DNA from: Escherichia coli
GTDB lineage: Bacteria > Pseudomonadota > Gammaproteobacteria > Enterobacterales > Enterobacteriaceae
Length of the DNA: 64,000 nt
Assembly: GCF_050320075.1 (NCBI RefSeq)
Contig: NZ_CP190018.1
Direction: 5' to 3' (one strand)
Below are positions 5,365 through 36,209 of this stretch, piece by piece. The notes beneath the pieces are model-generated. The model did no database searches. It saw only the letters and a list, made by a program, of their open reading frames with translations, and had not been told where the DNA came from. How positions within the stretch are numbered: the stretch's first letter is position 1; each line of letters opens with the position of its first letter. The position numbers were made by a program, and so were the translations under genes.

Positions 5365-7940
5365 CGTCCACCTCCGGAGAACAGGCCACCATCACGCATC
5401 TGTGTCTGAATTTCATCACGGGCACCCTTGCGGGCCATGTCATACACCGCCTTCAGAGCAGCCGGACCTATCTGCCCGTTCGTGCCGTCGTTGTTAATCA
5501 CCACATGGTTATTCTGCTCAAACGTCCCGGACGCCTGCGACCGGCTGTCAGCCAGACTGCCCGGTGTACCGACATAACCACCGGTGGCATAGCCGCGCAT
5601 CAGCCGGTAGAGATTCCCCACGCCAATCCGGCTGGTTGCCTCCTTCGTGAAGACAAATTCACCACGGTGAACAATCCCCGCTGGCTCATATTTGCCGCCG
5701 GTTCCTGTGAATCCTCCGGTTGCAAAATGGAATTTCGCCGCAGCGGCCTGAATGGCTGTACCGCCTGACGCGGATGCGCCGCCACCAACAGCCCCGCCAA
5801 TGGCGCTGCCGATACTCCCGACAATCCCCACCATTGCCTGCTTAAGCAAAATTTCTGTCATCATGGACAGCACGGATCGGGTGAAGCTGCGCCAGTTCTG
5901 TTCACTGCCGGTCAGCATCGCCGCCATATTCTGTGCAATACCATCAAAGGTCTGCGTGGCTGCACTTTTAACCTGCGACATACTGTCCGTGGCGCTCTCT
6001 TCCCACTCACTCCAGCCGGACTTCAGGCCTGCCATCCAGTTCCCGCGAAGCTGGTCTTCAGCCGCCCAGGTCTTTTTCTGCTCTGACATGACGTTATTCA
6101 GCGCCAGCGGATTATCGCCATACTGTTCCTTCAGGCGCTGTTCCGTGGCTTCCCGTTCTGCCTGCCGGTCAGTCAGCCCCCGGCTTTTCGCATCAATGGC
6201 GGCCCGTTTTGCCCGTTGCTGCTGTGCGAATTTATCCGCCTGCTGCGCCAGCGCGTTCAGGCGCTCCTGATACGTAACCTTGTCGCCAAGTGCAGCCAGC
6301 TGGCGTTTGTACTCCAGCGTCTCATCTTTATGCGCCAGCAGGGATTTCTCCTGTGCAGACAGCTGGCGACGTTGCGCCGCCTCCTCCAGTACCGCGAACT
6401 GACTCTCCGCCTTCCACAAATCCCGGCGCTGCTGGCTGATTTTCTCATTTGCTCCGGCATGCTTCTCCAGCGTCCGGAGTTCTGCCTGAAGCGTCAGCAG
6501 GGCAGCATGAGCACTGTCTTCCTGACGATCGCCCGCAGACACCTTCACGCCGGACTGTTTCGGCTTTTTCAGCGTCGCTTCATAATCCTTTTTCGCCGCC
6601 GCCATCAGCGTGTTGTAATCCGCCTGCAGGATTTTCCCGTCTTTCAGTGCCTTGTTCAGTTCTTCCTGACGGGCGGTATATTTCTCCAGCGGCGTCTGCA
6701 GCCGTTCGTAAGCCTTCTGCGCCTCTTCGGTATATTTCAGCCGTGATGCCTCAGACTCGGCCCGATCTTTTGCTGCCATCTCACTGGCCTTTTCAAGATC
6801 TGCCTGCAACGTGGCGGCTGAAAGCCCAAGTCGCGCATTCTCTCTCTTCTCCCATGCCCCCCGGAGATTGGCAAGAAATGCTGACGTTTTACCGCGCCGG
6901 TGGCTTCGGCTCTGATACCACTGCCATTTTTTATCCGCTTCATCAAAAGCCTTTTCAGCTTTGGCGAGCATATCTGCAGAGGAGTCCGGGCGGCCAATAT
7001 CCAGCACCGCATCCCACATGGATTTGAATGCCTGTGCAGTCTTGTCTGCCCAGGTCTCCAGCGTACCCATGTTATCTTTCAGTTTACGGGTCTGGTCATC
7101 AAACCCTTTCGTTGCGGCCTCGTTCGCCGCCTGCAATGCCCCGGCCCCATCGCCGGAACGCTGCAACTGAGCAACATACGCAATCTGCTCCGCCGTCACG
7201 TTATGGAACTGGCGCGCCATCGCCGTCAGCCCCGACGTCGGGTCAGTGGTCAGCTTCCCGAAGGCTTCAGCGACCTTGTCCACCTCCACACCGGATGCAG
7301 AGGAGAAACGCGCCACACTCTGGCTGATTGCCTCAAACTGCTCACCACCACGCACACCGGCATTCACCAGCGCCGTCAGTGACTCGCTGGTCTGGTTAAA
7401 CGTCAGCCCTGCCGCCTGCCCGGATCTGGACAGGGCCAGCATACGATCTGCCGTCAGTCCCGCCTGATTACCGGAAAGGACCAGCGTTTTATTGAAATTG
7501 GACAGGGTTGAGTCACCCTGATACCAGGCATACGCCAGCGCACCGGTCGCCACCGCCAGCGAAGTGATACCAACCATCGGCAGGGTGATCGCACCGGCAA
7601 GCCCCCTGAACATGGGGATCATCCCGCCGAAGGAGTCCTTCACCTGACCACCCTGTTGCAGCAGGATGAGCCACGGATTCTGCCCCCCTGCAAGCTGCGT
7701 GGCCACGTCGGTGAACTGCGCAGGCAGCATACGCATGGCAGCTTTATACTGCCCGACGGAAATCCCCGCTTTCTGTGCAGCCAGCGCCTGCCGGTTTATT
7801 GACTGTTCAACGACTGCCGCTGTTTTTTTCGCATCACTTTCCGTACCGGAAAAATGACGCCTGACTCTGGCCATCTGCTCGTCAAATCTGGCCGCATCCA
7901 GACTTAAATCAACGACCAGATCGCCTACCGGTTCAGCCAT
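5361..7940 (-). CDS. H: Tail tape measure protein H
   Basis: 859-aa ORF MAEPVGDLVVDLSLDAARFDEQMARVRRHF... with coiled-coil middle and Gly-rich C-terminus, as in lambda gpH. Confidence 0.93.
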   Translation of the reverse strand: MAEPVGDLVVDLSLDAARFDEQMARVRRHFSGTESDAKKTAAVVEQSINRQALAAQKAGISVGQYKAAMRMLPAQFTDVATQLAGGQNPWLILLQQGGQVKDSFGGMIPMFRGLAGAITLPMVGITSLAVATGALAYAWYQGDSTLSNFNKTLVLSGNQAGLTADRMLALSRSGQAAGLTFNQTSESLTALVNAGVRGGEQFEAISQSVARFSSASGVEVDKVAEAFGKLTTDPTSGLTAMARQFHNVTAEQIAYVAQLQRSGDGAGALQAANEAATKGFDDQTRKLKDNMGTLETWADKTAQAFKSMWDAVLDIGRPDSSADMLAKAEKAFDEADKKWQWYQSRSHRRGKTSAFLANLRGAWEKRENARLGLSAATLQADLEKASEMAAKDRAESEASRLKYTEEAQKAYERLQTPLEKYTARQEELNKALKDGKILQADYNTLMAAAKKDYEATLKKPKQSGVKVSAGDRQEDSAHAALLTLQAELRTLEKHAGANEKISQQRRDLWKAESQFAVLEEAAQRRQLSAQEKSLLAHKDETLEYKRQLAALGDKVTYQERLNALAQQADKFAQQQRAKRAAIDAKSRGLTDRQAEREATEQRLKEQYGDNPLALNNVMSEQKKTWAAEDQLRGNWMAGLKSGWSEWEESATDSMSQVKSAATQTFDGIAQNMAAMLTGSEQNWRSFTRSVLSMMTEILLKQAMVGIVGSIGSAIGGAVGGGASASGGTAIQAAAAKFHFATGGFTGTGGKYEPAGIVHRGEFVFTKEATSRIGVGNLYRLMRGYATGGYVGTPGSLADSRSQASGTFEQNNHVVINNDGTNGQIGPAALKAVYDMARKGARDEIQTQMRDGGLFSGGGR

Positions 7941-23865: not shown

Positions 23866-24575
23866 CGCCTATAAGGCTCTCTTACCAGCCGCGCCCTAAC
23901 AGGCGCACACGATCTGACATTTGCATCCAACTTCGTTACTTACGGCCCGTAAACGGGCTGCCCGGATAGGGAATCGATAACTGCTCTCCCATTTTATCCT
24001 CTTCAAGCTGGTGCTTTATGTAGTCCTGTATCTTCGCCGTGTTCTTACCCACCGTATCGACATAGTACCCTCGGCACCAGAACTCCCTGTTTCTGTATTT
24101 GAATTTCAAATCCCCAAACTGCTCGTAAAGCATCAGACTGCTTTTCCCTTTCAGATATCCCATAAAGCCGGATACGCTCATTTTGGGTGGGATTTCCACA
24201 AGCATATGGATATGATCTGCGCAGCACTCTGCTTCCAGAATCCGTACGCTTTTCCACTCACACAGCTTTCTCAAAATACTGCCTATCGCCCTACGCTTCT
24301 CTCCGTAAAACGCCAGTCTTCGGTATTTCGGCGCAAAAACTATGTGATATTTACAGTTCCAGCGGGTGTGCACTAAGCTCTTTTCGTCCCCCATTGGGAC
24401 CCCCTTTTGATTTCTTGTTTGACACTTGCAGTTGCCAGACCGCAAGGTGTTTTAACAAATCAAAAGGGGTTTTAATAACTGGCTCAAAGCTGAAAGCTTT
24501 CCGGAACCCCCAGCCTAGCTGGGGGTTTTCTGTGCACAAAAAAACCAGCCTTTGGGGAGGCTGGCTAAATCAGGA
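23866..24575 (-). mobile_element. IS200 insertion sequence (boundaries approximate)
   Basis: Contains the IS200 TnpA gene plus end hairpins (GGCCCGTAAACGGGC near 23945; CCCCCAGCCTAGCTGGGGG and CCAGCCTTTGGGGAGGCTGG near 24500..24570). Confidence 0.8.
23936..24394 (-). CDS. tnpA: IS200/IS605-family Y1 (HUH) transposase TnpA
   Basis: MGDEKSLVHTRWNCKYHIVFAPKYRRLAFYGEKRRAIGSILRKLCEWKSVRILEAECCADHIHMLVEIPP... matches IS200 TnpA (152 aa). Confidence 0.93.
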   Translation of the reverse strand: MGDEKSLVHTRWNCKYHIVFAPKYRRLAFYGEKRRAIGSILRKLCEWKSVRILEAECCADHIHMLVEIPPKMSVSGFMGYLKGKSSLMLYEQFGDLKFKYRNREFWCRGYYVDTVGKNTAKIQDYIKHQLEEDKMGEQLSIPYPGSPFTGRK

Positions 24576-25627: not shown

Positions 25628-25914
25628 GCCTTAATTACCCCCTCTTTCAGCCAGATAACCTGCGTTCTCGCCATACCTTCCAGCGCGCATTCTTTTGCAT
25701 ATCCAGCGTCAACAAAATGCGTGCGACGGTCGATCTCGTCGTGACAGGCAGAACATGCAATGGTGGCAATCAGGTCTGGCGGTTTGATACCGGTACCGCA
25801 CAATCCAGCCAGCCGGATATGTGCCAGTACAGACGTTTCAGGATTGCCATTACATACGCCAGGGATTCTTACCTGGCATTCCCGACCACGCGCTGCTTTT
25901 CTCAAATCAGCCAT
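25624..25914 (-). CDS. YbcO-like prophage protein (Cys/His-rich, putative nuclease)
   Basis: [64 protein letters not shown]... resembles DLP12 YbcO (96 aa). Confidence 0.85.
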
Positions 25915-26077
25915 GATTCCTCCTTGCTGCCAGTCGCAACCATTTTTTATCAACCAGGCTGGCGGTATATCCGAGCAGTGTTGGTATTTCGGATGGTTTC
26001 AGCTCAGGCCTACGCTTACGACGATTTGGTACTTTGTAGATGTGTCCGTTCATGACACGAATAAGCGGTGTAGCCAT
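25907..26077 (-). CDS. NinE-family small protein
   Basis: Hand-translated 56-aa [59 protein letters not shown], overlapping the ybcO-like start (ATGGCTGA); position between ninB and ybcO. Confidence 0.6.
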   Translation of the reverse strand: MATPLIRVMNGHIYKVPNRRKRRPELKPSEIPTLLGYTASLVDKKWLRLAARRNHG

Positions 26078-26532
26078 TACGCCTCCTGCTTATCACGCAG
26101 CAGCTGGAACTCGCAGCTCTGCGGAATAGTCAGGTGGCAGCCAATATTCATCGCCCAGGCTTCAACCTTACACAGGAAGACATACATCTCTCCGGTATCA
26201 AGGTCGGAGGTATGGCGTAACGACTGGATAGTGGTGATATCACCGGTTACGACATCAACCAGGTCTTTGGTTTCATAACCGAGATATGTGTGTTTGAGAG
26301 CATCTTTTACCCAAGCTGGAGTGGCGAACGTTTTACCCCTGCTGATGAGGTATTCACTGATTTCGCTGTACCACATGTGGCTGAGTGCATTCTGGGAAAG
26401 ACTGCGTCTCTCGCGCCACGGTTTAAGCACCATGCGAAAGCATTTGCCGTCCTCCAGATAAGGCTGGATCTGCCGACCGATAGCGGTGAAGTTACCGCGA
26501 TGTAATTTGATGCCATCTTGTGGGAGGTTCAC
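26077..26532 (-). CDS. ninB: Recombination protein NinB
   Basis: 151-aa [61 protein letters not shown]... resembles NinB family proteins. Confidence 0.85.
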
Positions 26533-26726
26533 GCTTCACCTCCGCAGAGGTCAAACGTTGGATGCAAAGAATCGCAGGTGCATTTCTGCATCTGTGAAGA
26601 GAGAAGAGAGTTTAGATTGTATGTGCGCATAAACGTCCCCGTTTAGCGCAGAAGTCACCGGAGTTGTTCAGGCTCCAATGGCATGATTATGGCTGGTTGA
26701 TTATTGGAAATCAAATGTGCTGAAAA

Positions 26727-27236
26727 TTAGTCTGCCAAGTCTTCCTCAGTCGCAACTGGGTAATTCCAAATATCAAAAAAAGCTATAGCCTCCTGCCATT
26801 TGCTCCATAAGTTATCAAGTACTTGTGTAGGTTCCGTACTTTTAAAAACAGAATCAGCCGCATCACCGTTATGAACTTCCTCGTACAGTTCCATTATTAG
26901 CAGATTAACAAAGTACTGTTTCAACATTAATGCCTGATTACCTTCTTTCTGCTGGCTATCCTGCTTGATGATCTCCATCGCCCGTACTAGGCACCTGATG
27001 ATATCCGCTGCATCATTAACGCTCCATTCAGATCCGCGCTTATCTTTAGCTGATGAATTGGCTCTCTCAGCGCAAGCCTTTAAAGACTCATAAAGGTAAA
27101 CTCTATTTTGTAGCTGCAGCGCTTTTTTTGACGTGTACCAACTTGCAAGCGCCGACCCCGCTGCGGCTAATGTGCCAAACGCAGAAATACCTGCTGCTAT
27201 TGCACTTAAGTCGGCACTGTCAAAGTTCCACATCAT
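26727..27236 (-). CDS. Hypothetical protein with one N-terminal transmembrane segment (prophage cargo, unknown function)
   Basis: 169-aa ORF MMWNFDSADLSAIAAGISAFGTLAAAGSALASWYTSKK... then a hydrophilic acidic tail; low GC; no family recognised. Confidence 0.55.
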   Translation of the reverse strand: MMWNFDSADLSAIAAGISAFGTLAAAGSALASWYTSKKALQLQNRVYLYESLKACAERANSSAKDKRGSEWSVNDAADIIRCLVRAMEIIKQDSQQKEGNQALMLKQYFVNLLIMELYEEVHNGDAADSVFKSTEPTQVLDNLWSKWQEAIAFFDIWNYPVATEEDLAD

Positions 27237-27905
27237 CGTTACACCTTATATAAATACCCCTCAGTAATATCCAATAAGGTATGTGCACAATCAATATAAT
27301 TTTATCCGTATCGGCACATAGCGATTTGAAGGCTACTGGTAATAGTATATTTTAGATTATATCGTCCAGTTTACAGCACCCGTATTTTATGAAATGGACT
27401 CGCATATTACCCAAAAAATGCCAGCACTTCCGTCATCGTAGAATGCTGGCAGTATTTCTAACTAGTGACTTTATTGGAACAGATTCTGACGGAAATATGG
27501 TAACACTCGACTCCACTTATCATCCAGCCACGGCTGGAATTTTACATGTGCCGTTTATCTGGCGAGGATTGCTCGCGCTCTGTTGAGTATCTGGGGATAT
27601 TCATGCTCGATAGAAGTAAAGCGGCCGGCTTCGCGGTGCTCCGCAACCTGAAGTAGTGGAGTAACGTTCTGGCAGGCAGTTAACATCACATCACCTGCTC
27701 GCCATAACCAAGCACGTGCACAAAGTTTGTTATCAGTGAATTGTTTTGTGATTGGGTATTGTTGAACTGCTAGAACGAGAACGCCAGCATCCATTGGCAG
27801 TCCCTATAGTAAAACCATAGCTCAGGACGCTTCGTTCAGGATAGATAATTTTATTGTACTTACCTAACTTTCTTACTATAGCACGGTTGAAAAAGTGATT
27901 ATTAC

Positions 27906-29432
27906 TCAAAAATAAACCTCACCATCAACCATATATTTGAGAGTACTTATCGCCTGCTGGGCGGATATTATTTTCATTAAAGGATAGTGTTTAAAAACAA
28001 TGCCATTCATAAAATAGATATCACAGGTTTTATTATCTGTATTGATTATGATTTTTTCGAATGTTTTATAGGCAAGTGTACGACATAGCTCTCGCCCATT
28101 TTTACTGGTTAAGTCAATAGCATGAAAATCACCAAGTGAACTCACCGCTTTACTCTTCAAAGTTTTTAATGATACAGAAGCCCTTCGTAATTCCTTATCT
28201 AATACTCTGATTTTTTCTGCTATAGCGGTAACTTCAGGCGCAACAGATAATGCAGCAATTAAATTATTAATTTTCATCTGGAGCTCAATAATTTTCAACT
28301 CTAAAGTTTCATTAGCATCTTTCTTGTTTTCAACTGGTTGGATTTTACTACAATTAAAAAGCAACTCATTAATGATATTATAATCAACCAAATCTCTCTT
28401 TATTGATGGCCTGTCACATCGATGCAGTCTTCTCATCGGACAAACATAATAGCCATGCAAACTTCCAGATACCGCATGAACAATCATGGTATTACCACAA
28501 GCCTCGCACTTCATAACTGTTCGAAGTAGATTTATCAACATAGGATTTTTGCTACTATTGCTAATACCAAAAGGTGCCAACCGAATTTCCTGCACAGCGT
28601 AAAACAAATCATCTGATATGACTCTGGGATAATAGCCAGCGATTTCACTTATTCCTTTACCTCTTGCACGATATGAAGGTACGCATATACCTATCAGAGC
28701 TTTATTCGCTAATAATTTTTCAATTACAGAAGGTCCCCATGCACTTTCTTTTCCTGAGAAATTCTTTACAGCATGATCATTTAAATACTTGGCTATTGCA
28801 TTCAATGAGCGCCTTTCCATCCTGAGTTTAAAAATTAGCTCAATAGTTTTCACCCTGTCGGGGTCTGGAACAAAAGCCGTTCTTTTGTCATCCAATGAGA
28901 GCCATCTCGGACAAGACGCCGTCATAATCGTGCCTGACTCCAGTGCATCCTGCCGTTTTTTCTTCCATGATAATTTAACCCGACTTGACTTTATCTCGCT
29001 TTCTTCATTTGCCCTTTGTGCTATAAGTATGGCTTTTATTAATGAATATGGCTCATTCAATGAGTCAATATTATAGACTGTATTATCGCAAAGAGTTATA
29101 ACATCAATACCGTGATTCAAAATCAATTTCAGACGCTCAATCGCTTCACCGACTTTTTCTCTTGAAAGTCTGTCCAGACTTTCAACTAACAATGTAGTCC
29201 CTGGCAATATATAACCATGTTCTATAGCATCTAAAAATTCCGAAAAAGCTCCTGATTGTGCATGCTTTCCATTGAATGCGCTTAACCCCAAATCTTCATA
29301 CGTTACGGTATCAAGGTAATAATCACTATTTACCTTTAGCCATTCAGTAATAAGCCTTCTCTGGCGGTTTAATGAATCACCAGACATCTGACCTGGTGAT
29401 GAAAATCGCATATATGCTATGGCTTTTTTCAT
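27906..29432 (-). CDS. Large serine recombinase (resolvase/invertase catalytic domain plus recombinase and Cys-rich zinc-ribbon-like domains), DLP12 YbcK type
   Basis: 508-aa ORF MKKAIAYMRFSSPGQMSGDSLNRQRRLITEWL... (catalytic Ser in RFSSPGQ) with downstream CEACGN...CPMRRLHRCDRP cysteine cluster; low GC. Confidence 0.85.
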   Translation of the reverse strand: MKKAIAYMRFSSPGQMSGDSLNRQRRLITEWLKVNSDYYLDTVTYEDLGLSAFNGKHAQSGAFSEFLDAIEHGYILPGTTLLVESLDRLSREKVGEAIERLKLILNHGIDVITLCDNTVYNIDSLNEPYSLIKAILIAQRANEESEIKSSRVKLSWKKKRQDALESGTIMTASCPRWLSLDDKRTAFVPDPDRVKTIELIFKLRMERRSLNAIAKYLNDHAVKNFSGKESAWGPSVIEKLLANKALIGICVPSYRARGKGISEIAGYYPRVISDDLFYAVQEIRLAPFGISNSSKNPMLINLLRTVMKCEACGNTMIVHAVSGSLHGYYVCPMRRLHRCDRPSIKRDLVDYNIINELLFNCSKIQPVENKKDANETLELKIIELQMKINNLIAALSVAPEVTAIAEKIRVLDKELRRASVSLKTLKSKAVSSLGDFHAIDLTSKNGRELCRTLAYKTFEKIIINTDNKTCDIYFMNGIVFKHYPLMKIISAQQAISTLKYMVDGEVYF

Positions 29433-29687
29433 GGTGACACCTGCTAAAGTATGCTTTTATAAACCTTAGTGGTGAGATATGATTTTTGTTTAATTTTTAT
29501 TTAAAAAGACAATTAAGGTCACATTATCTTGAATATACAACAATAATCGTATTGCAATTTTCTTACACCATAATCTTGAAAGCACAAAAGAATGAATAAA
29601 AACTAAAGACATTAACAAAAAGCATAAAACGAGGCCCATATAAATATACGAACCTCCATATTTTAGTCGTTTAAAAACAAATTATTT

Positions 29688-30020
29688 TTAATGTGGCGTG
29701 CTTCGTGACAATAAATTAATAACCAACACACCGGCACAAATCAACATCATGCCTATAATGGCTGGCAGGTCCAATCGTTGGCCGAAAAATCCCCATGATA
29801 GTAAGCTAATCAGGACAATACCGACTCCTGACCAGATAGCATAAGCAATCCCTGTAGGAATATAAGCCAGCGTCTGAGCTAATAACCAGAATGATGCACA
29901 ATAACAAATAATTGTACCAACAGATGGCCATAACCGTGTAAAACCTTCTGAAAACTTCATTAAGGTTGTACCAATGACCTCTGCAAGTATTGCACCACCA
30001 AGATAAATATAAGGATTCAT
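29688..30020 (-). CDS. emrE: Small multidrug resistance (SMR) efflux protein EmrE
   Basis: MNPYIYLGGAILAEVIGTTLMKFSEGFTRLWPSVGTIICYCASFWLLAQTLAYIPTGIAYAIWSGVGIVLISLLSWGFFGQRLDLPAIIGMMLICAGVL... essentially identical to E. coli EmrE (110 aa). Confidence 0.95.
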   Translation of the reverse strand: MNPYIYLGGAILAEVIGTTLMKFSEGFTRLWPSVGTIICYCASFWLLAQTLAYIPTGIAYAIWSGVGIVLISLLSWGFFGQRLDLPAIIGMMLICAGVLVINLLSRSTPH

Positions 30021-30087
30021 AGCATATTCTTTCCTGTTCAAACTGGAGAGAATTGTACTACAGTTTGAACTCAACTCACCTGTTTCA

Positions 30088-30390
30088 TCATTGTGTACCC
30101 ATTGATGTTCTTTTATATACCCTCAATACCCGTTTCATCGCGGCACTCTGGCGACACTCCTTAAAAATCAAATTCGTGCTCACCTTTCCTTCCCATTCTT
30201 CTCTGGTAGCGAACCGATAATACACCGTTCGCCAGACCTTACCATCAACGACCAGGATTCCTGCCCGCGCCATTTTAGCCGCAGCCTGATTTATGCTGGT
30301 TACCGTTGCGCCTGTTACCGCGGCAACGTCCTGCGCACAGAATTTCTTATGAGTCCCCAGGTAATGAATAATTGCCTCTTTGCCCGTCAT
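30088..30390 (-). CDS. ren: Ren protein
   Basis: 100-aa ORF MTGKEAIIHYLGTHKKFCAQDVAAVTGATVTSINQAAAKMARAGILVVDGKVWRTVYYRFATREE... matches lambda Ren. Confidence 0.9.
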   Translation of the reverse strand: MTGKEAIIHYLGTHKKFCAQDVAAVTGATVTSINQAAAKMARAGILVVDGKVWRTVYYRFATREEWEGKVSTNLIFKECRQSAAMKRVLRVYKRTSMGTQ

Positions 30391-31088
30391 ACCCTTGCTC
30401 CTTTCAGCCCAAACTTAGCTTTGATTTCTGCGATCTTCGCCAGAGCCTGAGCACGATTTAGAGGTCTACCGCCCATGACAGGAAGTTGTTTTACTGGTTC
30501 AGGTATAGCCTCACCACGGTTAATTCGTGCGGTCATACAGGACAGTTCATCGGCAGCCTTGCGCCGTAATTCCGCGTCAGTCAACGCATTGGCCCGCATG
30601 TTCTGATACAGGTTGGTAACCAGCCAGTAGTGCGCGTTTGATTTCCACGGATAAGACTCTGCATCCGGATACAGCCCGCGCTTCCGGCAATACTCGTAAA
30701 CCATATCAACCAGCTCGCTGGCGTTTGGCAGCCCAGCGGTAACGGATGCTTCTTCCCGGCACCAGGCGACAAACTGCCCGGGTGATGGCAGGAATGGTCG
30801 ATTCTGCCGACGGGCTACGCGCATTCCAGCGTTAACCTGTTCCATTGTGGTGATCCCGTTTTCCCGAAAAGCCAGCACCCACTGGCGGCGGATTTCGTTC
30901 AGTTCATTCTGGTCACGGTTAGCCAGGCTCGCCGGGAAAGTTGCCAGTAACTGGCTGAACACACCGTTGATGATCTGCGCTACCTGCTGTACCTGTGGCT
31001 TTTCGTCGTACTGTTCCGGCATGTTGTTGGCGATCCGACGCATCTGCTCACGGTCAAAGTTAACCATCTGTGCGGCGATGTTTTTCAT
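30387..31088 (-). CDS. P: Replication protein P (DnaB helicase loader)
   Basis: 233-aa ORF MKNIAAQMVNFDREQMRRIANNMPEQYDEKPQVQQVAQIINGVFSQLLATFPASLANRDQNE... matches lambda P. Confidence 0.95.
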   Translation of the reverse strand: MKNIAAQMVNFDREQMRRIANNMPEQYDEKPQVQQVAQIINGVFSQLLATFPASLANRDQNELNEIRRQWVLAFRENGITTMEQVNAGMRVARRQNRPFLPSPGQFVAWCREEASVTAGLPNASELVDMVYEYCRKRGLYPDAESYPWKSNAHYWLVTNLYQNMRANALTDAELRRKAADELSCMTARINRGEAIPEPVKQLPVMGGRPLNRAQALAKIAEIKAKFGLKGARV

Positions 31089-32104
31089 AGATCCACCCCG
31101 TAAATCCAGTCAGTGTTTGTCAGGTCGAGTTTTGGTTTGCCGACTGTCACGCCAGCCTGTTGCTTGTTCCGGTTGATTTCGAGCTGGGTCCACTTGTCGC
31201 GGAGTTTGGCCGGACTCAGCACGTTACCGGACCAGAAGTTGTCCTGGCAGGCCCAGCGGAACAGTACACACATGTCGCGGTGGTTACGTCCATCACGTTC
31301 ACGCATCAGACGGATATCGTTAGCCCACCCTGCAAAATTCGGTTTTCTGGCTGATGGCGCGATGGTCTTCACCATGTCAAACATCCACTCTGCGGCGGTC
31401 AGGTCTTCTGCTGTCCCCCACTTGCTGCCGCTCTGAATTGCAGCATCCGGTTTCACCACAGGAAGATCGTTTTCTGGTTGGTCAGAGGATTCGCCAGAAT
31501 TCTCGGACGAAAAAGGTTTTATATTGTCTTTTGTTAGTTTGTCTTTTGTGTTTACCTGATTCGGGTAAACGCCTTTACCTGATTTGGGTAAACTTTTTTT
31601 ACCTGATTCAGGTAAATTTACCTCTTTCAGGTAAACTTTATTTTTCTTACCTGATTCGGGTAATGTTGACCATTCACTGACCACATTATTAATGCCGGTA
31701 TTCCGCCCGCTCTGAATAAAAATCCCACGCTTTACCAGAACACTTTTTGCAGCAGAACACTTGTGCGGCAATATCCCGGTTAATTCGGAAAGTTGCTCGT
31801 TGCTAACCCAATCCAGTTTTTTATTAAAGCCATATGTTTTGCGCATGACAGCCAGAAAGACCAGAAGCTGGTGCTGTGTTAATCCGGCCAGCATCACAGC
31901 TTCCAGCAACTCATTTGCAATGCGCGTATAACCATCATCGAGATCTGCCACGCGCGGCTCCTTTTGTGCCTCATCCGGCACTGGAAAATTGAATATCTCA
32001 GCAGTGTTTGCCATAATTCCTTCCGCAATGAGTGCGTTACGATTTGCACCTGAAAGTCGGCTCTGTTCCCGCAGACCGGCTTTCGCCATTTCTGAACCTG
32101 TCAT
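31085..32104 (-). CDS. O: Replication initiator O (non-lambda N-terminal iteron-binding domain, lambda-like C-terminal P-interaction domain); alternative start at 32014
   Basis: 339-aa ORF whose C-terminal ~100 aa match lambda O; start overlaps the upstream ydaT-like stop in ATGA; ori iterons inside the gene. Confidence 0.88.
   Translation of the reverse strand: MTGSEMAKAGLREQSRLSGANRNALIAEGIMANTAEIFNFPVPDEAQKEPRVADLDDGYTRIANELLEAVMLAGLTQHQLLVFLAVMRKTYGFNKKLDWVSNEQLSELTGILPHKCSAAKSVLVKRGIFIQSGRNTGINNVVSEWSTLPESGKKNKVYLKEVNLPESGKKSLPKSGKGVYPNQVNTKDKLTKDNIKPFSSENSGESSDQPENDLPVVKPDAAIQSGSKWGTAEDLTAAEWMFDMVKTIAPSARKPNFAGWANDIRLMRERDGRNHRDMCVLFRWACQDNFWSGNVLSPAKLRDKWTQLEINRNKQQAGVTVGKPKLDLTNTDWIYGVDL
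31545..31660. repeat. Replication origin iterons inside O: about five ~18-bp palindromic repeats (TTACCTGATTCGGGTAAA-like) plus AT-rich tract
   Basis: Direct repeats seen in sequence: TACCTGATTCGGGTAAAC, TACCTGATTTGGGTAAAC, TACCTGATTCAGGTAAAT, ACCTCTTTCAGGTAAAC, TACCTGATTCGGGTAATG; position equivalent to lambda ori within O. Confidence 0.8.
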
Positions 32105-32646
32105 ATTGCCCCCAGCATGGTGGTAACCATCGCCATTAATGGACCAGCCAGATCCGGGTCCACACGAAACATCGACACAATACCTTCACTCATTTCCTTC
32201 AGTTTCTGGTGGCGTGGTGCGTTGAGAATGACCGCCTGCTTTGCCTCACAGAGTTCCTTTTCCATTTCAGCCAGCCGAGCCATGAAGCTATCCTGCTCAA
32301 CCAGGTGGCCGCGATATTCCAGCGGTAGTACCGCCAGAATTGCCGGGGTCAGTTCACGCACGTTATTTCGGTATTTTTCAGAATCGAATTTGTTATCGAG
32401 GAAGCGGAACAGCTTCTGGCGTGCACGGCTGACATCATCAGGGAAATCGATGGTGCCGCCGCCCTGCTCCCGATACTCATTCACAATGAGTGCGGCAACA
32501 ACATCCTGATTATCTGCAGCCGACCACGCGCGAACGGCATCACGGATTTTTTCGTGGCCTGGCACCTGTTTTATTTGAGAACGATTTATCACCGCAGTCG
32601 GGCTAAATCCGCTAGTCTGTTGGTATGTAAGTGGTTGCATAGTCAT
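32101..32646 (-). CDS. YdaT-like protein (Rac-prophage ydaT family) in the cII position
   Basis: 181-aa ORF containing ...ELTPAILAVLPLEYRGHLVEQDSFMARLA..., resembling Rac YdaT as I recall it. Confidence 0.6.
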   Translation of the reverse strand: MTMQPLTYQQTSGFSPTAVINRSQIKQVPGHEKIRDAVRAWSAADNQDVVAALIVNEYREQGGGTIDFPDDVSRARQKLFRFLDNKFDSEKYRNNVRELTPAILAVLPLEYRGHLVEQDSFMARLAEMEKELCEAKQAVILNAPRHQKLKEMSEGIVSMFRVDPDLAGPLMAMVTTMLGAI

Positions 32647-32670
32647 TGCCTTATCAGTTAACGCCGCAGT

Positions 32671-32904
32671 TTAGGCGGCAGAATTACTCGCGTTAAACAA
32701 TGGTGCAAGGTCGGGACGAATATCTGCTGGTTTAATCTTTCCACCAGTGGCTGAGACAATTTTCATTACATAGCGGGCATCAATTCCGCCACCGTGTAGC
32801 CAACGCCAAACAGTGGGCTGGGCTACACCGCATAGATCTGCCAGTCGTTTTTGACTACCTGTAATACTGATTGCGAGTTGAATGGTTTGATTTGTCATTA
32901 TCAA
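32671..32904 (-). CDS. Cro/YdaS-like HTH DNA-binding protein (lytic-side regulator)
   Basis: 77-aa ORF ...QKRLADLCGVAQPTVWRWLHGGGIDARYVMKIVSATGG... (helix-turn-helix), divergent from the repressor gene. Confidence 0.75.
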   Translation of the reverse strand: MIMTNQTIQLAISITGSQKRLADLCGVAQPTVWRWLHGGGIDARYVMKIVSATGGKIKPADIRPDLAPLFNASNSAA

Positions 32905-33008
32905 TTCCTATTGGTATTACAATGAATGGATAATAGCAATGCGTATTAATCCAATCAATAGCAAAACGTGTTTTGACCATCAATACGCAAGCGTATAAAT
33001 TAAAACTT
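32905..33008. promoter_or_regulatory. Immunity-region divergent promoter/operator region (OR equivalent) with ATACGC/GCGTAT half-sites including the palindrome ATACGCAAGCGTAT (32983..32996)
   Basis: AT-rich 104-bp spacer between divergent cro-like and cI-like genes; repeated half-sites seen in sequence; operator assignment is inferred. Confidence 0.5.
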
Positions 33009-33701
33009 ATGAAAAAAGAAACTCTTGCTGATCGCTTAAACCTAGCGATGGAACAATCTGGAATGTCTCAAGGCGCTCTTGCAAAGGCGTCTGGCGTAGC
33101 TCAACCCACAATCTGGAGACTGACAAGCGGCAACGCACGCGGCTCAACAAAAATTGTTGAAATAGCTAATGCATTGGGTGTTCGAACAGAGTGGCTCTCA
33201 TCAGGCATAGGCCCGATGAGAAATGACGGTCAACAATCAGGGAAGCCTGCTGTCAACCATTCCAAATACTTCAAAATTGACGTTCTTGATATAGAAGTCA
33301 GTGCTGGGCCGGGTGTCATCAACCGTGAGTTTGTAGAAGTCCTACGCTCGGTTGAGTACTCGTTTGACGATGCTCGTCACATGTTCGATGGCAGGAAGGC
33401 AGAAAATATCCGCATCATTAACGTACGCGGTGACAGCATGTCAGGAACGATCGAACCAGGTGATCTTCTGTTCGTTGATATCACTGTTAAATCTTTCGAC
33501 GGTGATGGTATCTATGCGTTTCTGTACGACGACACAGCCCATGTAAAGCGCCTGCAAATGATGAAGGATAAGCTGCTGGTTATCTCTGATAACAAGAGCT
33601 ACTCACCGTGGGACCCGATCGAAAAAGACGAAATGAATCGGGTATTTATATTTGGGAAAGTTATTGGGAGTATGCCACAGACATATAGAAAACATGGGTA
33701 G
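33009..33701 (+). CDS. CI-type prophage repressor (N-terminal HTH, C-terminal S24 LexA-like autopeptidase domain)
   Basis: MKKETLADRLNLAMEQSGMSQGALAKASGVAQPTIWRLTSGN... plus C-terminal RGDSMSGTIEPGDLLFV...VKRL motifs and a candidate Ala-Gly cleavage site (VSAGPG); not lambda cI. Confidence 0.88.
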   Translation: MKKETLADRLNLAMEQSGMSQGALAKASGVAQPTIWRLTSGNARGSTKIVEIANALGVRTEWLSSGIGPMRNDGQQSGKPAVNHSKYFKIDVLDIEVSAGPGVINREFVEVLRSVEYSFDDARHMFDGRKAENIRIINVRGDSMSGTIEPGDLLFVDITVKSFDGDGIYAFLYDDTAHVKRLQMMKDKLLVISDNKSYSPWDPIEKDEMNRVFIFGKVIGSMPQTYRKHG

Positions 33702-33807: not shown

Positions 33808-35415
33808 ATGGATATGTCAAAAAAAATTTTTGAATTCAAAAATTACCCAATAGTCTTTATTGGCTCAGGCATTTCAAAAAGATATTTAGAGAACTACCCA
33901 ACGTGGGAAGAGCTATTAAACGAGTATTGGAAAATAACAAATCCCACAAATGATTTCTATAGTTATCTTTTAACAATAAAAGAATCACATAAAAATAACA
34001 GTGATAATGATATCGATCATAAGATTTATACAGAGGCAGCAAGTAAAATTGAAAATGATTACAATCTATTGTTTAGGACTGGCAAATTAAAATTAAATGG
34101 ACTAGATGCCAAGAGGGTTTTTAGTGAAGATATTTCACCATTTAAATACGCCATATGCCAAAGATTTTCTAATAACACAATCAGAAAGGATGTAAATCTT
34201 GATGAATTAGCATCATTTAAAACATTAATAAAAAAGGCCAAGATAATCATCACTACAAATTATGATGCTTTCATAGAAAATTTACTTCAAGAGCAAAATG
34301 TAACTCCAAAACTCTATATTGGAAATAATGGTTTTTTCGAAGATACTATTGGCTGGAGTGAGTTATACAAAATACATGGTGATATAAAGGATCCACACTC
34401 AATAATCATAAATAAAGATGATTACGAAAAATATGACAACAAATCTATACTCATTAGTGCCAAGATACTATCTAACATGATTAAAAATCCAATAGTTTTT
34501 CTTGGATATTCTTTAACTGACAGGAATGTAAAGAAACTTCTTTCTGATTTTTCCTCACAACTACCTAGAGAAGATGGTCGAAAATCAGCTGAAAGAATAA
34601 TTTTGATTGAATATAAAGAGAATGAACAGGAAGTAGTACCAAAACAGATTACCGATCAACAGCTACAAATTACATATACATCTGTTAAAACAGATAACTA
34701 TAAACAGATCTATGATGAGATCAGTGCTGTTGATGAAGGGCTCTCACCTTATGATGTTTTAAGGTATCAAAGAGCCATTAAAACACTTATCATTAATGAG
34801 GGTGAAAAAGGGCACTTAGATACTCTATTGGTTTCACCTTCTGACTTAGACAGACTTGAAGAAAGTGTTAAACAAGGAAAAAATTTAGTTGTTGCTCTAG
34901 GCGATAAAAAGTATGTATTCACACAAGTTAAAGAAATAAATTATCTTGAAGACTACTTATTTAATAAAAATGAAATATCTAATAAATTAGCTATAGATTT
35001 CATATTAGGTTCAGTAAACTCATTACAACTTCCATTTTCAAAAACTATAACCTCATGTAATTTGAAAGAGTTAAGTTTGCCAGCTAAATATGTGTTAAAA
35101 CTAAATCAACGCATTGAACGCCACGGAAAACTAGACGACTTGCTCAATAAAATCACCTTAGATAAAATCAATGCAAATAAAATTTACACCAACATCAAAG
35201 ATATAAAGGATGCAAAGTTCAAAAAGTACAAAGAATTGTCTATAGTCATTAAGAACATAAAAAATATCCCCAAAGAGGAGATTGAAGATTATGTTAAAAA
35301 AGAAGCGTTTGTTCAATTCAAGGCATGCGACGTTGACAATTTAAAAACCCAGTATAGGAAACTATTTCTTGCCTACGACTTGTTGATTCATGGAAATGTT
35401 GAAAAGATAAATTAA
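33808..35415 (+). CDS. SIR2-like (sirtuin-family, SIR2_2-type) domain protein with uncharacterised C-terminal half; candidate single-gene anti-phage defence protein in the rexAB-equivalent position
   Basis: 535-aa ORF, about 28-30% GC; motifs FIGSGISK (res 17-24), IIITTNYD (N151), YKIHGD (H190), IVFLGYSLTD (229-238) with Asn-His spacing of 39 as in defence-associated SIR2 domains; directly downstream and co-oriented with the repressor. Confidence 0.7.
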   Translation: MDMSKKIFEFKNYPIVFIGSGISKRYLENYPTWEELLNEYWKITNPTNDFYSYLLTIKESHKNNSDNDIDHKIYTEAASKIENDYNLLFRTGKLKLNGLDAKRVFSEDISPFKYAICQRFSNNTIRKDVNLDELASFKTLIKKAKIIITTNYDAFIENLLQEQNVTPKLYIGNNGFFEDTIGWSELYKIHGDIKDPHSIIINKDDYEKYDNKSILISAKILSNMIKNPIVFLGYSLTDRNVKKLLSDFSSQLPREDGRKSAERIILIEYKENEQEVVPKQITDQQLQITYTSVKTDNYKQIYDEISAVDEGLSPYDVLRYQRAIKTLIINEGEKGHLDTLLVSPSDLDRLEESVKQGKNLVVALGDKKYVFTQVKEINYLEDYLFNKNEISNKLAIDFILGSVNSLQLPFSKTITSCNLKELSLPAKYVLKLNQRIERHGKLDDLLNKITLDKINANKIYTNIKDIKDAKFKKYKELSIVIKNIKNIPKEEIEDYVKKEAFVQFKACDVDNLKTQYRKLFLAYDLLIHGNVEKIN

Positions 35416-35919
35416 ATAAACGCCCCGTACAAAGCGATGGCGGGGCTAATAAGTCATTTATGTATCATTTAGCAACTGACTAAAAAAATACACATAAGAA
35501 CTCAGACTACCAATATTCGATTAAATTTGCTGCCAACCTACCGAGCTCACCACAACCCGATGCCCCTCTGTCACGAGGCACATTAAAGCTGTACAAATTT
35601 CAGCCACACCAATAAGTCTTCATACTCTTTTTTATAAAAATTCATTTAATTATCAATCAGAACAAGTATATCAAACATTATCAATACTAATTGCTATTGA
35701 CTACACCAATAGCTATTGCTATTGTCATGCTATTGCATCGATGTTGGTATCACAAAATTTATAACTTCACCGTTGCGATGACCGCTTAGATCCGCAGCTT
35801 GAATTTCAGCAGGCTCCGGGGAGTGCGAGGGGTGAAGCGGACGCGTGAACGTCGGTGTGACCAGCTGAAATCAACTCAACACTTCATACCTCAGTCGCTT
35901 CAACGAGGCGACTTAGTTA

Positions 35920-36209
35920 TGACAACCGGCGGCCATCCACCGCCTGAATACGCGCAGAAGTCTCTATATGTTCAGCAGCCCAGCTTACGGGCAGGAGTTT
36001 TTATGGTTCATCAACATTACGGAACGCAGACCGTTAATCGAGGTGCGGTCATGCCAGGAATGCTGGTCAAACACAAAGATGGTACCTGGACTGCATCAGC
36101 TAATTTACGCGGACGGCTATATCTGCATCGCGGCATCGAGCGCACTTATACCCGTGATTTGCTCGTGGAAGTTTTTCTCGACGGACGCGGTAACGGCCTG
36201 AATCACTAA
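35920..36209 (+). CDS. Hypothetical protein (96 aa from ATG; a TTG-initiated 136-aa version starts at 35799)
   Basis: [38 protein letters not shown]... with upstream GAGG; sits where lambda has N-ral-cIII-kil but resembles none of them. Confidence 0.35.

Follow-up and report, generated by a model that had tools for sequence, protein, structure and literature searches.

The YdaS/YdaT-like pair of the immunity region

The stretch analyzed here (the window) comprises 64,000 nucleotides (nt) of Escherichia coli DNA (RefSeq assembly GCF_050320075.1, contig NZ_CP190018.1), and our subject is a pair of minus-strand genes at 32101-32904 in the immunity region of a DLP12-like prophage. The first gene of the pair (32671-32898) codes for a 75-amino-acid (aa) helix-turn-helix (HTH) protein of the YdaS family (Pfam PF15943, 1e-14; PHROG 35, 1e-24), and the second (32101-32640) for a 179-aa protein of the YdaT family (Pfam PF06254, 2.6e-29; PHROG 163, 7e-66). 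They are divergent from a plus-strand gene at 33009-33701 for a repressor with an N-terminal HTH and an S24 autocleavage domain, and hence occupy the cro/cII position, as had been recognized in an earlier sequence-only reading of the window, which took the two genes for a Rac-type YdaS/YdaT pair. We consider it very probable that they are an ordinary cro/cII pair of the phage phi80 (YdaT) type. This assignment is based on comparison with known systems at the level of homology, fold, gene order, the layout of operators and promoters, and an antisense RNA gene.

Both open reading frames (ORFs) behave as real genes under purifying selection, with 50 synonymous against 20 non-synonymous segregating changes in cII across 57 haplotypes. 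At their longest they run over 32671-32904 and 32101-32646, which yields the 77 and 181 aa of the sequence-only reading; these ORFs exist, but the likely starts give 75 and 179 aa. The cro gene most likely starts at ATG 32898, which has AGGA 7 nt upstream and agrees with the 228-nt call of the Prokaryotic Genome Annotation Pipeline (PGAP). For cII, the ATG at 32646 is replaced by ATT in some relatives, and both PGAP and the phage records call a gene of 540 nt starting at ATG 32640.

The product of the first gene scores 54.5 bits against PF15943 (cut-off 30), gives a weak additional match to P22_Cro, and finds its best sequence matches in the Protein Data Bank (PDB) in the Xylella prophage Cro 3bd1 and in 5w8y. 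It is thus a small HTH protein encoded by the first gene after the promoter PR, divergent from cI over common operators. Its sequence is 31% identical to K-12 Rac YdaS over 67 aa (BLASTP, E=3e-10) and 34% identical to the product of phi80 gene 30 over 44 aa only; cro, cI and the operators of phi80 are unrelated in specificity to those of the window. As a separate observation, a 5-bp GC hairpin (GCCGC...GCGGC) at 32663-32679 holds the cro stop codon in its loop and recurs in phi80, HK225 and CobraSix, although their cro genes differ. It may represent an RNA element of the cro-cII junction, nutR/boxB-like or of another kind.

The larger protein is a CII of the phi80 type

The product of the second gene belongs to PF06254 with 101.9 bits (cut-off 21), and PHROG 163, described as "CII-like transcriptional activator", covers residues 19-181 of the larger ORF. 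A tblastn search of 50,697 phage records aligned it over 179 of 179 residues, at 66% identity, with the 180-aa cII product of phi80 (PHI80_49); the CII proteins of mEp237 (66%) and of HK225 and HK639 (52%) are further relatives. The phi80 gene is named cII in its early-region record of 1988 (X13065), and its product is called "CII decision making protein" in JX871397. Alignment to K-12 Rac YdaT (35% identity over 96 aa, BLASTP, E=3e-12) bears out the homology of the pair to YdaS/YdaT that the sequence-only reading had put forward, and it includes the YdaT-like segment ELTPAILAVLPLEYRGHL noted there in the larger ORF. As in phi80, where cII stands between cro (gene 30) and an O-like gene, the gene in the window is the second of the PR operon, divergent from the repressor gene and placed between cro and the replication genes; the order cro, cII, replication genes is common to nine related phages.

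An AlphaFold2 model of the protein (predicted local distance difference test score 79.8) begins with a predicted disordered segment (residues 1-25) and continues with a POU-like HTH domain and a long helix, to which two further helices are added at the C-terminus; the helical parts lie at 29-113 and 119-138. When compared with the PDB by Foldseek, its sole significant matches were 3c4r and 8bt1 (probability 1.0, target-normalized TM-score 0.70), which bear the title "YdaT transcription regulator (CII functional analog)". The CP-933P protein of 8bt1 (Jurenas 2021, PMC8630535; Prolic-Kalinsek 2023, PMC9986795) shares with the window protein its Pfam family, fold and cro/cII position, and the recognition helices are nearly alike (QKLFRFLDN in the window, QKIFRWLDK in CP-933P). 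The recognition-helix arginine R79, equivalent to R60 of CP-933P and R57 of Rac, is invariant in 30 sequences including Rac YdaT. The overall identity to CP-933P YdaT is only about 27%, and the window protein is longer at both ends, by about 28 residues at the N-terminus, predicted to be disordered, and by about 40 at the C-terminus, which form the two additional helices; the 140-aa Rac YdaT likewise lacks both extensions.

The sequence-only reading had also held that no cII-like gene is present. This is true of the lambda type, for no Pfam Phage_CII match was found and the best tblastn hit of lambda CII in the window (E=0.24) falls at an unrelated place; it does not hold for the phi80 type, as the 179-aa gene itself is, by its homology, such a cII and not one of the lambda type. 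A TTGC-N7-TTGC motif at the cII start (32635-32649) has a lambda-like look, but we regard it as fortuitous, given its overlap with the start codons, its wrong spacing and the lack of homology between the protein and lambda CII.

The cII gene is also mobile with respect to its neighbors. In 17 of 83 related loci a cII at least 96% identical to that of the window is joined to a different cro/cI module, the breakpoint being the cII start codon, and the wider family is found with 20 distinct immunity types and with several replication modules. Because it is paired with at least 20 cro/cI modules and several replication modules, the cII module, judged from these comparisons, is not immunity-specific, as in lambda.

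Operators and promoters between cro and cI

The intergenic region contains an OR-like array at 32930-33001, recognized by repeat search, promoter scan, pattern search and direct reading, with three operator-like dyads: ATAGCAATGCGTAT at 32933-32946, ATAGCAAAACGTGT at about 32960-32973 and ATACGCAAGCGTAT at 32983-32996. A PR-like promoter reads leftward on the minus strand through this array (TTGATT at 32958-32953, a 17-nt spacer and TATTAT ending at 32930), and a PRM-like promoter reads on the plus strand (TTGACC from 32973, 17 nt, TAAATT ending at 33001). A three-operator OR is likewise found in lambda. The cI gene, whose product matches Pfam Peptidase_S24 (1.3e-18) and HTH_3 as well as PHROG 4 and 6201, is called identically by PGAP (693 nt). 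Since its ATG lies only 7-8 nt past the PRM -10 element, the cI mRNA is probably leaderless, like those of the repressors of lambda and CP-933P. On the other side of the repressor, GCTATTG repeats related to OR are clustered at about 35685-35740 and are presumed to constitute OL.

Candidate CII operators

An operator for YdaT has been defined experimentally in the homologues: the structure of the CP-933P YdaT tetramer has been solved and TTGATT-N6-AATCAA footprinted (Prolic-Kalinsek, PMC9986795), and the start of Rac ydaT contains ATGATT-N6-AATCAA, with a reverse promoter for racR that is activated 29-fold (Wons, PMC11879457). The consensus used here, TTGATW-N6-WATCAA, which also describes the operator-like dyads of CP-933P, is matched perfectly at two places in the window, where 0.05 such matches are expected. 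When up to three mismatches to TTGATT-N6-AATCAA are allowed there is no overall enrichment in the window (40 against 38 expected), and the enrichment is seen only at 0-1 mismatch.

One perfect match (sense TTGATA-ATGACA-AATCAA) is a predicted box at 32887-32904 that overlaps the start codon of cro. A box near cro as a general trait was considered and set aside, as it is perfect only in this immunity type and the total of 6 compares with 2.3 expected (p about 0.055).

A second candidate lies within codons 17-22 of cII, at 32575-32592 (sense GTGATA-AATCGT-TCTCAA). The pattern nTGATW-N6-NNTCA is kept in 38 distinct cII 5' ends while the encoded peptide varies (VINRSQ, MINRAQ, LIKRNQ, MIYQNR, MISINQ, LISIYQ); isoleucine is encoded by ATA or ATT in every case, CAA is invariably preceded by T, and the most distant members (L217 and L158) have a perfect box. 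The segment of CII encoded there is the one predicted to be disordered. The alignment of cII with Rac YdaT sets in shortly downstream of the box, the corresponding Rac box being at the gene start, and the position of the window box recalls that of the lambda CII site within the cII 5' end; it is an inverted repeat, unlike the direct TTGC-N6-TTGC repeat of lambda. We infer from its position and conservation that this internal box is the homologue of the YdaT-box that drives a PRE-like promoter in Rac and CP-933P.

The other perfect match, TTGATT-TCCAAT-AATCAA at 26697-26714, is in the nin region. It forms the -35 element and spacer of a sigma-70-like promoter (26686-26714, minus strand; TTGATT, 17 nt, CATAAT) upstream of ylcH-ybcN-ninE...rusA-Q. 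The whole phi80 genome contains exactly one perfect box, and it is at the homologous place, over a promoter upstream of orf151, a ybcN-like gene; box and promoter are also present in phage 82 and in the DLP12 prophage of K-12, with conserved half-sites and a variable spacer. The region of this box occurs in 30 phage records, 25 of which have a phi80-type cII, and in none of 279 records with a lambda-type cII. In IMG/VR, a YdaT-type cII is located 3.4-6.7 kb upstream of the box in 30 of the 37 loci with enough upstream sequence. Shared ancestry inflates these counts of co-occurrence. We put forward, tentatively and at somewhat less than even probability, that CII of the phi80 type has a conserved second target in this box, through which it would control nin or Q expression directly; an alternative is that the box serves autoregulation by a downstream gene product. 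If true, binding of CII there would be a promoter-occlusion counterpart of the PaQ antisense mechanism of lambda.

The DLP12 copy of the site deserves separate mention. Upstream of ylcH-ybcN (6284-6312 of locus L218), K-12 DLP12 keeps a perfect box with its promoter, TTGATTTTGGGAAATCAAcacggCATAAT, having lost its own cII. Because it retains a box of the consensus that Rac YdaT binds, Rac YdaT could cross-regulate DLP12 genes in K-12; the site goes without mention in the Rac YdaT paper (PMC11879457).

Several observations weigh against the proposed cro/cII assignment and its regulatory corollaries. The genetic definition of phi80 cII rests on GenBank annotation, and the biochemically studied YdaT proteins are only 27-35% identical to the window protein. 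In the window phage the internal box departs from the consensus at two positions, and a PRE-like promoter was not located, there being no -10/-35 pair in a suitable register with that box; applying the geometry of the nin-region promoter to it revealed no -10 element either. There is no box near int or inside Q, and a search of the regions equivalent to lambda PRE, PI and PaQ found no common gapped motif of 5+5 nt. In a comparison of 20 immunity types the box at the cro start is not shared by others that have the same cII, and three IMG/VR loci pair the nin-region box with a lambda-type cII.

Some of these points would suit a protein that acts mainly as a repressor, occluding the nin promoter and blocking PR transcription at the cro start, so that lysogeny would proceed without PRE-type activation. 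One of the two best boxes does overlap a promoter's -35 element with its spacer (26686-26714) and the other the start of cro (32887-32904), positions that fit repression, and the authors of the CP-933P study term YdaT a repressor and locate OM, its main site, over a start of transcription (PMC9986795); the missing PRE-like promoter points the same way. Yet each of the two homologues studied switches on a reverse promoter that reads into the repressor gene (PMC8630535; PMC11879457, the 29-fold effect cited above), the box conserved in position in the cII 5' end corresponds to their activating sites, and the cro-start box is missing from other immunity types. We therefore regard a mainly repressing role as unlikely and retain the assignment as a CII.

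The start of O and an antisense RNA gene in the cII-O gap

The gene following cII codes for the replication initiator O (Pfam Phage_rep_O; PHROG 277), for which every automatic annotation uses ATG 32104, overlapping the cII stop as ATGA. An alternative ATG at 32014 lies 90 nt downstream behind a GGAAGGA Shine-Dalgarno sequence, and several lines of evidence favor it. The PHROG 277 alignment begins only at residue 31 of the ORF; the N-terminus read from ATG 32014 (MANTAEIFNF) matches the start of phi80 gp15 and also that of lambda O. Within the 30-codon extension, 4 changes are synonymous and 8 non-synonymous, one relative (L032) has a frameshift, and the resulting cII-O gap of 86 nt compares with gaps of 84-85 nt annotated in phi80, mEp237, HK225 and PHB10. 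Hence O most likely starts at ATG 32014 and occupies 31085-32014 on the minus strand.

The gap is predicted to hold an oop/M3-type antisense RNA gene (32024-32092, plus strand; expected RNA length 60-70 nt), which would be one more canonical feature of a cII locus. Its sequence is homologous to the gaps of mEp237 and PHB10. The fold, with a z-score of -2.95, places a small hairpin at the 5' end, then a 15-bp terminator hairpin (32051-32085) and a U-rich tail, and has the two-hairpin shape of the M3 RNA that the phi80 record annotates in the equivalent 85-nt gap. In RNAalifold, with 16 diverse sequences following phi80-type cII genes, 9 of the 13 predicted pairs of the terminator hairpin have compensatory changes, and this hairpin accompanies cII whatever the next replication gene. 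The U tract is weak (CUUUCGCCAUUUCUG), and a simple terminator scan gave no call there; Rfam returned no family for the gap, whether the region or the entire window was scanned. Upstream of the RNA, the promoter scan found a pO-like promoter (31989-32017, plus strand; TTGAAT, 17 nt, tgCATAAT) that reads towards cII and whose -10 element overlaps the O start codon, as does that of lambda pO, which has the same CATAAT. The promoter is conserved in six phages, with TGTTTGnCATAnT shared by lambda, phi80, mEp237, HK225 and PHB10. The predicted RNA lies within the gap and, unlike lambda oop, does not overlap the cII 3' end. Within O itself, direct reading detected an iteron of approximately 17 bp in five copies (TTACCTGATTCGGGTAA and variants) at 31548-31664, presumed to be the replication origin, as in lambda.

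These results bear on the alternative that corresponds to the sequence-only reading: a Rac-type module for growth inhibition or a lytic switch in place of Cro/CII, translationally coupled to O such that the arrest of host growth would be tied to phage replication, in a phage without cII function. Toxic effects of Rac YdaS and YdaT on derepression or over-expression have indeed been reported (PMC5700377, PMC5700373, PMC11879457), with filamentation caused by Rac YdaT acting via RcsA (PMC11879457); both Pfam families carry "toxin" in their names, a lambda-type CII is missing from the window, and an in-frame ATG does overlap the cII stop. The ATGA overlap, however, is real only for the longest O ORF. 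Because the extension evolves as non-coding sequence, with 4/8 synonymous to non-synonymous changes against 50/20 in cII, and because the gap holds the predicted antisense RNA gene, the apparent translational coupling to the replication genes is most likely a longest-ORF artifact resting on an untranslated stretch. The same cII moreover stands before unrelated replication genes, and the larger protein is an ortholog of phi80 CII over its full length. The CP-933P YdaT is non-toxic and activates a PRE-like promoter (PMC8630535), and lambda CII is toxic too when over-expressed (PMC5917428). We consider such a module quite improbable; the earlier observations were largely right and their interpretation largely wrong. 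A type II toxin-antitoxin system, which the original RASTA prediction, the Pfam names and the two-gene operon layout might suggest, is scarcely credible in the setting of a complete immunity region in viable phages, given that the pair has no PADLOC match, that the modeled fold would be that of a DNA-binding HTH tetramer, and that published tests (cited in PMC5917428, PMC8630535 and PMC9986795) found no toxin-antitoxin behavior.

A model of the switch and its relation to known systems

The regulatory steps proposed for the cro/cII pair are drawn from experiments on YdaS and YdaT from CP-933P and Rac and from the naming of cII in the phi80 records. In CP-933P, YdaS binds OR-type operators and represses PRM, competing with the repressor for the intergenic operators, and YdaT turns on a PRE-like promoter (PMC8630535). 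By analogy, cro and cII of the window would be transcribed from PR, divergent from the LexA-like cI, over the three-operator OR, and Cro would bind OR and shut off PRM. CII would be a tetrameric HTH regulator of TTGATW-N6-WATCAA dyads which, after infection, might activate a leftward PRE-like promoter for cI from the internal box at 32575-32592, the resulting cI expression tipping the decision to lysogeny, while the antisense RNA made from pO would damp cII expression. More tentatively, CII may also bind the box at the cro start (32887-32904) and that in the nin region (26686-26714), in the latter case lowering rightward or late-gene expression, with an outcome like that of lambda PaQ reached by promoter occlusion. 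Toxicity on over-expression, as seen with Rac YdaT and lambda CII, would be a by-product rather than the function. The literature already treats YdaS and YdaT as the counterparts of Cro and CII, not as toxins (PMC5917428, PMC8630535, PMC9986795, PMC11879457), and the pair is a common, previously described arrangement, neither a toxin pair nor a new kind of switch.

The arrangement differs from each known system in part. In its gene order cro-cII-oop-O and its logic, including a regulator site in the cII 5' end, it resembles lambda, from which it departs in the lack of sequence similarity between the CII proteins and in a cro-cII spacing of only about 30 nt. The replication genes are lambda-like O and P, against gp15 and gp14 in phi80, and phi80 has an N gene, which was not recognizable in the window. 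CP-933P is a defective prophage with PaaR2 and a ParE toxin-antitoxin pair at the cI position, where the window has the S24 repressor followed by a SIR2 gene. Rac has homologous YdaS and YdaT genes divergent from a repressor gene; it is, however, defective, RacR is not an S24 repressor, and only in Rac have toxicity and a link to RcsA been reported.

Prophage setting and distribution

The module is part of an intact DLP12-like lambdoid prophage that lies within the window and adjoins tRNA-Arg (argU). In a 100%-identical copy, PGAP annotates, in order, int, exo-bet-gam-kil, the SIR2 gene, cI, cro, the YdaT-like gene, O, P, ren, emrE, ybcK, the nin genes, rusA, quuD (Q), lysis genes and head genes; several sequenced strains, such as YZLc1-3 and Ec-U3, are 100% identical to the window sequence. 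The cro/cII module is found at 96-100% identity in 2,215 of 5,426 complete E. coli genomes, and the cro-cII-O junction at 96-98% nucleotide identity in 16 cultured E. coli phages whose records annotate cII and Cro. Carriers of the 179-aa gene include plaque-forming lambdoid phages, and their records, too, name it cII.

To the right of cI, where lambda has rexAB, the window codes for a 535-aa SIR2-domain protein (33808-35415, plus strand) matching PHROG 2695 and, at E=6e-236, the PADLOC candidate defense family PDC-S25; in heteroimmune relatives the cargo after cI is different, for instance the GevT/GevA toxin-antitoxin pair in PhiR47_2. No N-like ORF was recognizable at 35416-36002, between the presumed PL/OL (about 35685-35760) and kil (36003-36209), and the kil ORF has an arginine-rich in-frame upstream stretch (RLRGVRGVKRTRERR). 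A search for a put-like RNA downstream of PL (35770-35925) gave a fold z-score of -0.94, which is not significant.

Downstream of O lies the gene for the helicase loader P (30387-31088, minus strand; Pfam Phage_lambda_P, 8e-62). Between ren and the nin region, at 27906-30074, are emrE, coding for an efflux pump of the small multidrug resistance (SMR) family, and ybcK, coding for a 508-aa serine recombinase. The inducible phages PhiR70_1 and PhiR47_2 carry the same emrE/ybcK cargo, so that K-12 emrE is to be seen as cargo borne by an active phage lineage. Compared with strain GE3, the window has an identical immunity region within a prophage that is not identical: an indel of a few hundred bp separates the two in the nin region (about 25700-27300), and ybcN is at 26077-26532, off the position predicted from GE3. 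The sole gathering-level Rfam match in the window is the Hfq-binding small RNA STnc490 (146 bits) at 24404-24527 on the minus strand, which is placed in the Q (quuD) region through the GE3 coordinate offset, an offset that is inexact in that part of the window.

Implications

What is new here is modest and drawn from genome comparison: the probable mis-annotation of the O start, a predicted antisense RNA absent from the annotation, and a distal box that is a candidate for binding by CII. The main practical value concerns annotation. Pfam and PGAP still apply the label "toxin YdaS/YdaT", which invites misreading of a cro/cII pair present in about 40% of complete E. coli genomes, and in this phage group both RefSeq and the phage records appear to give O 30 codons too many, hiding an oop/M3-type RNA gene. 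For research, the value lies in the predicted CII (YdaT-type) boxes, chiefly the conserved one over the nin-region promoter, which provides a testable hypothesis linking the lysogeny decision to late-gene control in phi80-type phages.

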